A stretch of DNA of 64,000 nt. Source: Clostridia bacterium (GTDB lineage: Bacteria > Bacillota > Clostridia > Christensenellales > QALW01). The number at the start of each line of letters is the position of its first letter. Position 1 is the stretch's first letter. Shown piece after piece: positions 10,849-27,898 of this stretch. A program made the translations under genes and the position numbers. The stretch covers positions 8,700 to 72,699 of the forward strand of contig JAZQTV010000113.1 in the NCBI GenBank assembly GCA_045630945.1. Direction: 5' to 3'. The notes under the pieces are model-generated. The model saw only the letters and a program-made list of their open reading frames with translations. It ran no database searches and was not told where the DNA came from.

Positions 10849-11814
10849 TTATCTTTCTTCAATTATCTTCTTTAACGAATAATCAAATTTAAGCACGTTT
10901 TTCTGCCTGCCGTGCACGTCGGTATTTGCACCGATACGAATAAGCGTAAGAGTATTGGTTCCGGTATCTACCGACATAACGTTAAAGCAGTCCTCCGAAC
11001 GCTCACCGATAACGCGCCTTGTATCGCCTAAGGCATCCCACGTGGTAGCGTTTTGTATAGCAATATTTAAGATGCCCTCACTTGTAAGCCCGAACTGATC
11101 AACGTGATCGTGTCCTGCAAGATTACATACGTACCTGCCGCCGTAAGAAATAAATTCCTTAATTACGTCCTAGTATAAAACTCTGCCGCGATGGTCAAAA
11201 TCGTAGTTAATTCGGTTTAATTCGTACTGCTTCCATTTTGAAACGTAATCTTCAACGGTTGAAAAAAGTGAACCGTATGTGTTTGAAATGTATCCCGTAG
11301 GCTCGTGCTGTGCGGTGATAACGTGCATATTTAAGGAATAGGCTTCCTTTAAAACCGAGCGCAGCCACGGGCGTGCAGGCCAGATATCATAATAATCGTC
11401 AAGCACGATAATGCGCAGGTCGTTGCAGTCTATATAATAGCACATGGAATAGGGACATTCAAAGAACGTAACGTTCCAGTCTTCTGTGTGATTAAAAAGA
11501 AGACTGTGCGCAACCTTTTTATCATTTAACAGCCACGCGCCCTCACCCGAATAACAGTCGTGATTGCCTACGCAGTTGTAAATGGGGCGTGAGCATTTTT
11601 TTAGGTACATATCAGCATAAACCTTTTGCGAGCCACCGCAGTAATCACCCGTGTGTAAGCCGAAGGAAATTACGTTTTTGTAGTGATCAATATATTCGGT
11701 AATTCTGTTCCATAATTCCGGCTTTGCGTGTACGTCCGAAAAATGAACAAAGCTGATGCCTGTTAATGCTAAAACGTCTCTTTCTGTGTCGCGGTTTAAC
11801 TCAATTACGTTCAT
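10849..11814 (-). pseudogene. metallophosphoesterase interrupted by one in-frame TAG (pseudogene or amber read-through)
   Basis: The listed 214-aa ORF ends at TAG (11170-11172). The same frame continues for 106 more codons to TAA (10849-10851): DVIKEFISYGGRYVCNLAGHDHVDQ... Motifs DVH, GDY, GNHD and an H lie before the TAG; the final GHDH motif lies after it. The downstream piece has no start codon or RBS. Confidence 0.75.
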
Positions 11815-11839
11815 TTTATATCTCCTGTGCGGTTAATTG

Positions 11840-13954
11840 TCACGTTGCTAAAGTAATTTTAATTTGAGGCGGATACGTTAAAATGGGTGCGGTGCCCTCA
11901 CTTTGCTTATATGTGATTTTGCCATATGGGGTTAAAAGCTCAATATTAACGTAGCTTAAGCCTAATAAATCGGGTGAAAGACGGATTTTCTTCATTTTTG
12001 GCTCAATAATTTCAATGCCTAATACTGCCTTGGGTAATGAATATAAGGGGGTACCGCCCCAAGCGTGACTGTGGTCAAATGAATAAGTTGGCTCGGGGGC
12101 AATAAAGCCTTCTACCAAACCTTTGGGAAATATTCTTACAGGCTCTTTCCATTTATCTAATATTTTCAAGGTATACTCTTTCCTTAAGCCTAAACGGTAT
12201 ACGGCCTCTAACAAATAATGCAAGAAGTACGGCTGACAGTCACCCTCAATATTGTCTGCCATGATTTTATGAATAAGTGACCTTCCGGTACTTTCGTCGC
12301 ATACGCCGAAATATGCCGCAAGAATGTTTGAATGCTTAAGATAGTAACGCTTTTCTACGTTTTGCGGCAACCATATTCCCTTTGCATCTTCAGGGGTATT
12401 AAGTCCCTCAAAATAGCAATCTTTTTCTTTGTTATAGAGCAGGCTGTTGATTGCGTTGCGCAAGCATTCCCTTTTTTTGTGACATTTTTGTGCTGAATCG
12501 TTTTCACCTAAAATGCCGTATATTTTTTTTGCATTATCCAATGCACCGAAATAAAACATATTCAAGCAGCTTTGACCAAGCGCCTTGGGAGGATGGTGCA
12601 TGGAAAGACCGTCAATATAAATCCAGTCTATAAACATATAGTCGGGTGGGTTATCTATAATGCCGTTTTCGCCCATATATTCTTCAAAACGCATTAAAAG
12701 AAGATCTAACGCCTTTTTTGATTGGTTTAAAAGCGCAAGATTGCCTGTAAGCATATATGTTTCATAAAGCATTTTTACCCATATAAGACTATACGTGGTA
12801 TGAAACATTCTTCCGTTTTCTCTTTCAAGCAAAACTGCAGTACGCAGGATATCAAATTCGGCAAGCCGCATATCACCGAATGAAAATGGTGTCATCAGGC
12901 TTTCGATGTAATAATCACCCGTGCATGCAAGGGGCTCACAATGACGGGTACTGTCAAGATGATGCGTCTGTCTGCAAATTTTAAGGGTGTGCTTACAAAC
13001 CTCAAGCACGCTGTTAAGGGCGTTATCACTTGTTACCGTGGTTGCTTCCTCGTAAACGGGGTAGTGGGTTTTAATAAATGAAACCTTAATACAGGCTTTA
13101 GCTTGCGACGTGTTTTTTGCGGTCAGCTTAATGTTTCCGGTGCTATGAATGCTGAAACCGCGATAGCTTTGCGGTGAATTGAAAATAAGCACCTCAGGCT
13201 CGGGCGAATCATCAGCCTCTCTGCAATAAGCAGCAACCTCTACCGTGGCAGAGTTTTTTGATTCTACCTTTAAAAATCCGCCCCATATTTTATCAAGCTC
13301 AAGAACCACCGTTTTTTCTTCAAGGGGAAGCAAAAAAATCTCTCCTTCATCAAAAAACAGCTCTTCCTCAAAGCGTGGGGGAATAGGGGCAACCGAAGCG
13401 TTCCAGATATCGTCAACAGTTTGGGCGTTAACGTATTCGTCAGGTAAAATTCTGCCGTCAAATGCCATTGGGGCATTAAATGCACCGTTTTTGCGGACAA
13501 GCCAATTTTCGTCGGTTTTTATATTTTCTATGGTTCCATCTTCAAAGGTAAGAACGGCGGAAAGCATAAAGCCGCCGTGCCCCATAGAATATTCGCAAAT
13601 ATGGTAAGGTAAAATATTGACGCGCGCAAAAAAATCAAGGGTTGATGATTGGGGGAAAACCGTCATTTCAAAGGCATAAAAATTATTGCGTTTAGTTTCG
13701 TTACCGATAAAATCGCCGCCAACACAGGCAGGACCGGTTGCAATGGCGTTGCCGTTTAAAAATAATTGAAATACCGCATCACCGCTAAAGCGAAGCTGTG
13801 CCTGAACAACCTTTTTTGAGAAAACGTATTCTTTTTTGAATTCGGCAACGGTGTGGTTAATTTCGCTTTTATCCGAAAAAGCACTAAAAACGGTTGCTTG
13901 ATCGTTTGGGTAGATATCTTCAGGAAGCCATATCCAACTATCCTTGCACTGCAT
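11840..13954 (-). CDS. glycoside hydrolase, alpha-L-rhamnosidase (GH78)-like
   Basis: 704-aa ORF with TGA stop. N-terminal SWIWLPE...LRFSGDAVFQLFLNGN and a helical C-terminal half resemble GH78-type proteins (by eye). Confidence 0.5.
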   Translation of the reverse strand: MQCKDSWIWLPEDIYPNDQATVFSAFSDKSEINHTVAEFKKEYVFSKKVVQAQLRFSGDAVFQLFLNGNAIATGPACVGGDFIGNETKRNNFYAFEMTVFPQSSTLDFFARVNILPYHICEYSMGHGGFMLSAVLTFEDGTIENIKTDENWLVRKNGAFNAPMAFDGRILPDEYVNAQTVDDIWNASVAPIPPRFEEELFFDEGEIFLLPLEEKTVVLELDKIWGGFLKVESKNSATVEVAAYCREADDSPEPEVLIFNSPQSYRGFSIHSTGNIKLTAKNTSQAKACIKVSFIKTHYPVYEEATTVTSDNALNSVLEVCKHTLKICRQTHHLDSTRHCEPLACTGDYYIESLMTPFSFGDMRLAEFDILRTAVLLERENGRMFHTTYSLIWVKMLYETYMLTGNLALLNQSKKALDLLLMRFEEYMGENGIIDNPPDYMFIDWIYIDGLSMHHPPKALGQSCLNMFYFGALDNAKKIYGILGENDSAQKCHKKRECLRNAINSLLYNKEKDCYFEGLNTPEDAKGIWLPQNVEKRYYLKHSNILAAYFGVCDESTGRSLIHKIMADNIEGDCQPYFLHYLLEAVYRLGLRKEYTLKILDKWKEPVRIFPKGLVEGFIAPEPTYSFDHSHAWGGTPLYSLPKAVLGIEIIEPKMKKIRLSPDLLGLSYVNIELLTPYGKITYKQSEGTAPILTYPPQIKITLAT

Positions 13955-14032
13955 ATGCCTACTCCTTTTTTAGTTGATAAAATGATACTATAATTATAAT
14001 TCATTATCAAAATATAATCAATAATCAAAATT

Positions 14033-26496: not shown

Positions 26497-26500
26497 AATA

Positions 26501-26527
26501 AAAAGCGGAGAATTCTCCGCTTTTTTG
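26501..26527. terminator. bidirectional rho-independent terminator
   Basis: Palindrome gcggagaattctccgc flanked by an A-run and T6. Confidence 0.7.
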
Positions 26528-27898
26528 TTACAGTGTTACACCGTCTTTGAAGATGGAAATTTCTTCGTAGCCGTTTAATTCGTTCTTTGTTTTTTCACCC
26601 TAGGCAACGGAAATTACGTAGTCAAAAAGTTCTTTTGTAAGCTCGTTGCCTTCAAGGGTTTTAGAAGCATCAAAGTCTATCCAACCTGATTTTTTTGTAG
26701 CTAAAATATTGTTGGTTGCGATTTTTACCGTGGGAATTGCGCTTCCTAACGGTGTGCCTCTACCTGTGGTAAACAGTATAAGATGCACACCTGCAGCCAT
26801 AAGATTTGTAACTGCAACAATATCGTTACCGGGACCGTTTAACAGTGAAAGACCGTTCTTTGTTACAGTATCACCGTAATCGAGTACGTCAACAACCGCT
26901 GAAAGACCACCCTTTTGCACACAACCTAATGATTTTTCTTCAAGGGTGGTAATTCCGCCATCCTTATTGCCTGGCGAGGGATTTTCGTATATTACCTAAT
27001 TATGACTTTCAAAATACGCCTTAAAATTATTTATAAGCGAAACGGTTTTATCAAACACTTCTTTTGTAGTGCAGCGCTTCATAAGTAAATGCTCTGCGCC
27101 AAACATTTCGGGAACCTCGGTCAGTACACAGCTTCCGCCCATTGAAACAAGCATATCACAGAATCTGCCTACAAGTGGGTTTGCGGTTATGCCTGAAAAG
27201 CCGTCGCTTCCGCCGCATTTAAGACCGATTTTTAAGCGCGAAACGTTGATAGCCTCTCGCTTAAAGGCGCTTGCGTATTCCTTAAGCTCGTTTATAAGTT
27301 TTACGCCCTCCTGAATTTCATCTTCAACGTCCTGCGTGTTTAAAAATTTTACGCGCTTTTCGTTCCAAGTGCCAAGAACCTTTTTGAATTCAGTAATATT
27401 GTTGTTTTCGCAACCAAGTCCAAGCACTAGCACACCTGCGGCATTAGGGTGATTAACCATGCCCTTAAGTATCTTTTGCGTAACGCTTTGGTCGTCGCCA
27501 AGCTGTGAACAGCCAAAGGGATGCTCAAAGCACTTTGCACCTGTCAAAAGCGCAAGCTTCTTTGAAACCTTGTTCACACAGCCTACGGTGTTTATTATCC
27601 ATATATCGTTTCTTATGCCCACGTCACCGTTTTCGCGTATATAGCCGTAAAAGTAAAGGTCGGTTTCTTTGATTTTTACGTAGCTTTCACTTGGCGCATA
27701 CGTGTATTCGATTTTACCCGAAAGATTGGTCTTAAGGTTGTGGACGTGCACGTGCTCATCCTTTTTTATATCCTCGGTTGCGTGACCGATAGGCTGACCG
27801 TATTTTATGATATTTTCACCCTTTTTTATGTCAAAACGTGCATATTTGTGACCGTTTTCAGTATTAACGTATACGTTGTCAAGATTGTTTATTATCAT
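26528..27898 (-). pseudogene. uxaA: altronate dehydratase (UxaA) with two in-frame TAG codons (pseudogene or amber read-through)
   Basis: One frame reads ...FKAYFESHN-TAG(26996-26998)-VIYENPSPGNKDGGITTLEEKSLGCVQKGG...DYVISVA-TAG(26600-26602)-GEKTKNELNGYEEISIFKDGVTL-TAA(26528-26530). Hallmark UxaA blocks continue unbroken after both TAGs and there are no frameshifts. Confidence 0.85.

Follow-up and report, generated by a model that had tools for sequence, protein, structure and literature searches.

In-frame TAG codons in two decaying genes of an uncultured gut Clostridia genome are probably recent nonsense mutations

We analyzed a 64,000-nucleotide stretch of a Clostridia bacterium genome (GenBank assembly GCA_045630945.1, contig JAZQTV010000113.1, forward-strand positions 8,700 to 72,699; hereafter the window, numbered from its first letter), in which three TAG codons interrupt two genes in frame: one lies in a metallophosphoesterase gene and two lie in uxaA, the gene of altronate dehydratase. 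With a probability of about 0.9, we read these codons as independent, recent and strain-specific nonsense mutations in two genes that the strain no longer needs, the genetic code being unchanged. TAG would then be read as stop and the products would be truncated. The feature belongs to an already known kind, that of recent nonsense pseudogenes, and is an ordinary example of it.

The metallophosphoesterase and uxaA ambers

Translation reproduced all three in-frame TAGs listed in the first-pass annotation of this DNA. The metallophosphoesterase frame contains a single stop, TAG at codon 215 (11170-11172), and uxaA contains two, at codon 301 (26996-26998; site 1) and codon 433 (26600-26602; site 2), TAG both times. 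Conserved motifs had been said to continue past the stops, and Pfam domains indeed cross them: the SAF, GD_AH_second and GD_AH_C matches in uxaA continue through both, with GD_AH_C spanning UxaA residues 219-454 (profile positions 1-241 of 242). A six-frame scan of the window found no in-frame TAA or TGA flanked on both sides by long coding sequence of one gene, in agreement with the earlier statement that none of the interrupting stops is TAA or TGA.

For comparison with close kin we used three contigs of the JGI metagenome 3300041665 (L085, L086 and L087), which we took as one population conspecific with the window. The aligned segments total ~30 kb, each at 97.7-99.6% nucleotide identity; L085 covers window positions 3884-15328 (99.1-99.2% identity), L087 covers 15297-24423, and L086 covers 24928-33756. 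L085 carries an intact metallophosphoesterase gene (P0241, 321 aa), in which the codon at the TAG site of the window is GAG (Glu). The two sequences differ at plus-strand position 11172 (A in the window, C in L085), which corresponds to G>T on the coding strand. Since the conspecific has GAG at this codon, the metallophosphoesterase amber appears to be a strain-specific change, in which a single G>T substitution would have turned a Glu codon into TAG. Glu occupies the column in 111 of 114 homologues, and the window's own two fragments of the protein (P0132, 214 aa; P0242, 42 aa) fall into one 90% cluster with the full-length P0241.

The uxaA sites were compared with homologues from other lineages. 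The nearest of these, all full length (456 aa) and at most 85% identical, belong to uncultured animal-gut bacteria (Clostridia, Acutalibacteraceae and Oscillospiraceae); a UxaA search of genome contigs returned 80 loci with a top identity of 84%. At site 1, where the first-pass annotation had expected a Gln, this residue is invariant (120/120 homologues), and the codon in the seven nearest relatives is CAG six times and CAA once. A CAG-to-TAG change at the invariant Gln would explain the first stop. Site 2 is variable, with residue counts of N57/D23/S19/G11/E9/A1 among the homologues. All near relatives have AAC or AAT (AAY, Asn) there, so that TAG is at least two changes away, and this stop would represent a second hit near the 3′ end of the gene.

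Decay of the uxaB-uxaA pair and of neighbouring genes

In relatives, uxaB (421-422 aa) lies between the gene of an AraC regulator and uxaA (456 aa). UxaB, tagaturonate reductase, makes altronate in the hexuronate (Ashwell) pathway, and without it UxaA has no substrate. A tblastn search with the relatives' 421-422-aa UxaB matched residues 3-132 in one frame and residues 123-172 in another, the remainder being absent from the window. Compared with L086, the window has lost 2 nt after position 28053 (CAATTG to CTTG on the coding strand), outside any homopolymer, and ~690 nt (~230 codons, residues ~175-400) are gone at a junction near 27930/27931. Because uxaB is destroyed, both uxaA TAGs sit in a gene that probably had no selective value left; in the order of events that we infer, the 2-nt frameshift and the ~690-nt deletion in uxaB would have preceded the uxaA stops.

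The conspecific population has lost the same pair in another way. In L086, uxaB is complete up to residue ~403, from where its frame continues into the final 18 uxaA codons, giving a fusion product of 420 aa; the deletion at this locus (L086 1806-3068), between two copies of the 9-nt microhomology AAGAACGAA, removed ~1.3 kb and with it almost the whole of uxaA. As judged from these alignments, the uxaB-uxaA pair was evidently inactivated by different events in two conspecific genomes.

Two further genes in the vicinity are damaged. The M19 dipeptidase open reading frame (ORF) at 17161-17871 matches only Peptidase_M19 profile positions 92-318 of 319, and its N-terminus lies in another frame. 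Relative to L087, a T7 run has become T6 (17971-17976), a 1-nt deletion; with one T added back, the ORF extends to 309 aa and its Peptidase_M19 match to profile positions 41-318. The L087 copy (5087-6017) is itself frameshifted, 39 nt upstream of the window's site, by a T3-to-T4 change matching window position 18009. Since the frameshifts lie at different sites, the dipeptidase has been inactivated independently in both conspecific genomes, a case of parallel loss. In addition, the JGI conspecific carries a 51-nt insertion at window position 18298, in the short ORF/intergenic region upstream of the M19 gene. In place of the GH10 xylanase remnant, L087 has a 440-aa Glyco_hydro_10 gene (6073-7395), of which positions 6200-7255 are without a counterpart in the window; the aligned segments flanking this deletion overlap by 17 nt at the junction (Table 1).

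At least seven inactivating lesions thus fall within ~20 kb. Three are TAGs, and the others are the 2-nt and 690-nt deletions in uxaB, the 1-nt deletion in the M19 gene and the ~1-kb deletion in the GH10 gene. The first-pass annotation had described premature stops in otherwise intact genes. The stops are real, but the same 20 kb contains frameshifts and deletions in uxaB, M19 and GH10; of this decay, uxaB had been noticed, whereas the M19 dipeptidase and the GH10 remnant had been missed. Ordinary pseudogenisation, one of the explanations it offered, is favoured by the GAG codon at the metallophosphoesterase site of the conspecific and by the different destruction of uxaBA in the two genomes. 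The comparison of orthologues that it had proposed revealed sense codons at all three sites in relatives, and the uxaBA operon is otherwise degraded.

Table 1 Features of the window discussed in the text (positions in the window; strand; supporting evidence).
Feature	Position	Strand	Evidence
Metallophosphoesterase pseudogene, 321 codons	10849..11814	-	Translation; Pfam Metallophos match
uxaA (altronate dehydratase) pseudogene, 456 codons	26528..27898	-	Translation; Pfam across both stops
uxaB (tagaturonate reductase) remnant	27931..28450	-	Pfam: N-terminal Rossmann part only; tblastn; L086 comparison
M19 dipeptidase pseudogene	17161..18089	-	Partial Pfam match, frame switch, L087 comparison
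GH10 xylanase remnant, 98 codons	16855..17151	-	Deletion of ~1.05 kb, junction 16979-16995
Control: beta-lactamase-family gene ending in TAG	9081..10094	-	Read-through +5 codons
Control: XRE-family regulator ending in TAG	32145..32747	-	Read-through +23 codons; conspecific P0252 of same length
Control: intact GH39-like gene ending in TAG	51072..52364	-	Read-through +18 codons
Control: TIR/LRR gene ending in TAG	57978..59120	-	Read-through +3 codons; conspecific P0255 of same length
tRNA-Ala(CGC), sole tRNA in the window, no suppressor	25047..25122	-	ARAGORN

These lesions also bear on whether consensus or base-calling errors lie behind one or more of the TAGs, with the genes intact in the organism, an explanation that we regard as unlikely. 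It draws on the fact that the TAG lesions are single-base differences, that the M19 gene is altered by 1 nt within a T7 homopolymer, as is typical of long-read error, and that all three stops share the context Y-TAG-G. The types of change differ, however, one being G>T, another C>T and the third a step of 2 nt or more from AAY, and no one systematic error fits them. An origin in a methylation motif (CCAGG to CTAGG) failed as well, the ancestor being GAG in the metallophosphoesterase gene and TCAGG at uxaA site 1. Base-calling can explain neither the 690-nt and non-homopolymer 2-nt deletions in the partner gene uxaB nor the ~1-kb GH10 deletion. Finally, the window differs from the conspecific by few indels (~12 events in 30 kb, mostly intergenic), suggesting that the assembly is not generally error-prone. 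We infer that the stops are genuine in the DNA.

Across the 23 genes or gene segments that the conspecific contigs cover, including a few that are incomplete or pseudogenes, the window and the conspecific differ by 102 synonymous and 95 nonsynonymous changes. Assuming ~3 nonsynonymous sites per synonymous site, this corresponds to a dN/dS of roughly 0.3, which is unremarkable for close strains. Two ~99% identical genomes of one uncultured gut Clostridia species have lost the same functions, namely the uxaB-uxaA step of hexuronate catabolism and the M19 dipeptidase, by different mutations. On the strength of these sequence comparisons, the pattern indicates an ongoing, parallel loss of carbohydrate-utilisation genes in the lineage.

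TAG usage, chance and the decoding apparatus

TAG is the rarest terminator among 48 genes of the window (TAA 34, TGA 10, TAG 4). The four gene ends in TAG reported in the first-pass annotation (9081, 32145, 51072 and 57978) are correct, as are the extensions of 5, 23, 18 and 3 codons that read-through would add, and these genes served as controls (Table 1). The TAG of the intact GH39-like gene overlaps the ribosome-binding site of the next gene (TAGGAGA), whose ATG lies 10 nt downstream, and 113 of 118 homologues reach at most 3 residues past the C-terminus of the window protein. Since the homologues end at the same C-terminus, this TAG is a true terminator. In frame, TAG was found 3 times in ~18,700 codons, in 2 of the 48 genes.

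That every in-frame stop is an amber would be a coincidence aided by codon usage, GAG, CAG, AAG, TAY and TGG being common precursors. We calculated the expectation for nonsense mutations from the codon usage of the window (~18,700 codons), varying the transition/transversion and GC>AT biases. Of the single-step nonsense mutations expected under this codon usage, 35-45% give TAG, the TAG, TAA and TGA shares being roughly 35-45 : 31-45 : 21-25; the probability that three of three stops are TAG is 0.04-0.09, and that of all three being the same stop, whichever it is, ~0.13. Three ambers of three are a mild coincidence and carry no signal.

Some observations weigh against recent nonsense mutation as the explanation. 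UxaA shows no sign of relaxed constraint, with 0 missense changes at 179 invariant columns besides the TAG. Such conservation means that uxaA would have to have been inactivated only very recently, and a pair of nonsense hits within such a short time is somewhat above expectation. A conspecific copy of uxaA giving the ancestral codons was not found in the protein and metagenome collections searched; in metagenome contigs, an exact 29-mer at site 1 (C/T) and a wobble-degenerate pattern at site 2 gave 0 matches, which fits the deletion of uxaA in the JGI conspecific population. The shared Y-TAG-G context is likewise unexplained.

The intact invariant columns of UxaA are the one feature that a read-through hypothesis can claim, although they are also compatible with very recent inactivation. 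According to this hypothesis, a strain-specific amber suppressor tRNA or a weakened release factor 1 (RF1) makes TAG alleles leaky, so that they are tolerated and accumulate or become fixed more readily than TAA or TGA. It would account for both the all-amber stops, with zero TAA or TGA, and the otherwise perfect conservation of UxaA, and the rarity of TAG as a terminator accords with it. We nevertheless consider it very improbable, and the suppression or read-through raised in the first-pass annotation is not supported, given the columns concerned, the rarity of TAG in frame and its normal use as a terminator. The residues at the three TAG columns differ, being Glu in the metallophosphoesterase, Gln at uxaA site 1 and Asn-like at uxaA site 2. 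No single decoding of TAG therefore suits the invariant Gln column and the near-invariant Glu column together, and whichever residue were inserted, at least one of the two proteins would carry a missense change at an invariant position. Suppression would also have to be strain-specific, because the metallophosphoesterase codon is GAG in a conspecific of 99% identity; uxaA is without a functional uxaB partner, leaving nothing to rescue. TAG ends four genes normally, among them the GH39-like gene at its family's C-terminus, and lesions other than TAG are at least as frequent in the region.

ARAGORN detected no tRNA with a CUA anticodon within the 64 kb, as had been stated before, tRNA-Ala(CGC) being the only tRNA seen, and Pfam annotation of essentially all long ORFs of the window revealed no genes for a release factor (RF1), for pyl functions or for methyltransferases. 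If suppression were nonetheless real, this would be a rare natural amber-suppressor strain, for which the evidence leaves little room. Apart from pyrrolysine, we know of no bacterial reassignment of TAG. A study that screened more than 250,000 genomes states that every stop reassignment known in bacteria concerns UGA (PMC8629427).

A third alternative holds that the ambers arose at hotspots of 5-methylcytosine deamination, by a Dcm-type change of CCAGG to CTAGG. Two of the window's nine CTAGs are amber sites, and both read CTAGG; CTAG itself is scarce (9 observed, 38 expected), as is CCWGG (13 observed, ~35 expected). The precursors argue otherwise: the conspecific has GAG in the metallophosphoesterase gene, which implies a G>T transversion, uxaA site 1 would come from TCAGG, and site 2 aligns with AAY. 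The Dcm-type origin was rejected, being refuted for two of the three sites, and we give it next to no credence.

Short palindromes are strongly depleted throughout the window, with observed/expected counts of 19/150 for GGCC, 51/195 for CCGG, 55/165 for CATG and 90/167 for GATC, besides those for CTAG given above; GCWGC is also depleted, as is CCWGG. The depletion of palindromes looks like a restriction-avoidance signature.

Comparison with known systems and further observations

Pseudogenes with in-frame stops can be mistaken for recoded genes (PMC8629427). The present case calls for the same caution, in that in-frame stops of one type in conserved genes have the appearance of recoding, an appearance that does not hold up when a conspecific sequence and the lesions nearby are taken into account. 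As in recent bacterial nonsense and frameshift pseudogenes, the window has stops at codons that are sense in orthologues and in a conspecific, the operon concerned and genes close by also carry frameshifts and deletions, and the remainder is conserved as the events are recent. Nothing essential sets the window apart from this class, its oddities being that all stops are TAG (P ~0.04-0.09) and that they share the Y-TAG-G context.

Decoding of UAG as pyrrolysine (pylTSBCD) occurs in some Firmicutes and archaea, with UAG in methylamine methyltransferase genes. The window resembles such systems in having in-frame UAG in a genome of class Clostridia. It differs in the genes affected, uxaA and a metallophosphoesterase gene, in that pyl genes were not found in the window, and in that the conspecific has GAG at one of the sites. 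Regarding hotspots, Coulondre and Miller reportedly found that amber hotspots in lacI coincide with 5-methylcytosine in CCAGG. Two of the window ambers lie in CTAGG and are alike in this respect, whereas their precursors and that of the third (GAG, TCAGG and AAY) are not.

Recoding of TAG to Gln (genetic code 15) with a suppressor tRNA has been described in gut phages (bioRxiv 10.1101/2021.08.26.457843; PMC9523058). The window is likewise gut-associated and has in-frame TAGs in conserved genes, one of them on an invariant Gln. It is, however, part of a bacterial chromosome rather than a phage, since it carries dnaA, yidC, jag and the genes of seryl-tRNA synthetase (SerRS) and a Gln/Glu-tRNA synthetase, and its in-frame TAGs are restricted to 2 of ~50 genes. 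Those not at the Gln column occupy columns of Glu and Asn, genes continue to end in TAG, and tRNA-CUA was not found in the window. Code 15 is defined by abundant in-frame TAGs, by a single residue at each TAG column and by the loss of TAG as a stop; these features were each tested for and are not seen here.

Further differences between the window and the JGI conspecific concern genes other than those described above. The conspecific lacks 369 nt at window positions 9744-10112, the start of the beta-lactamase-family gene, and ~1.3 kb from the 5′ part of a gene for a 1177-aa CBM/CE2/GDSL esterase (window 21912-23201). The part of the esterase gene common to both has 28 nonsynonymous and 9 synonymous differences, which suggests decay or diversification.

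The region 41035-48277 contains dnaA (43185-44591, minus strand) followed by the gene of a 712-aa protein without a Pfam match, with yidC and jag 2 kb away on the other strand. The usual neighbour of dnaA at the place of the 712-aa protein is dnaN. The GC skew keeps its sign at this region, which we regard only as a candidate replication origin. Lastly, two adjacent, slightly overlapping TIR-domain genes on the minus strand (56602-59120) encode a protein combining TIR with BspA-type LRR (380 aa) and one combining TIR with GNAT (464 aa); this pair may be defence-related.

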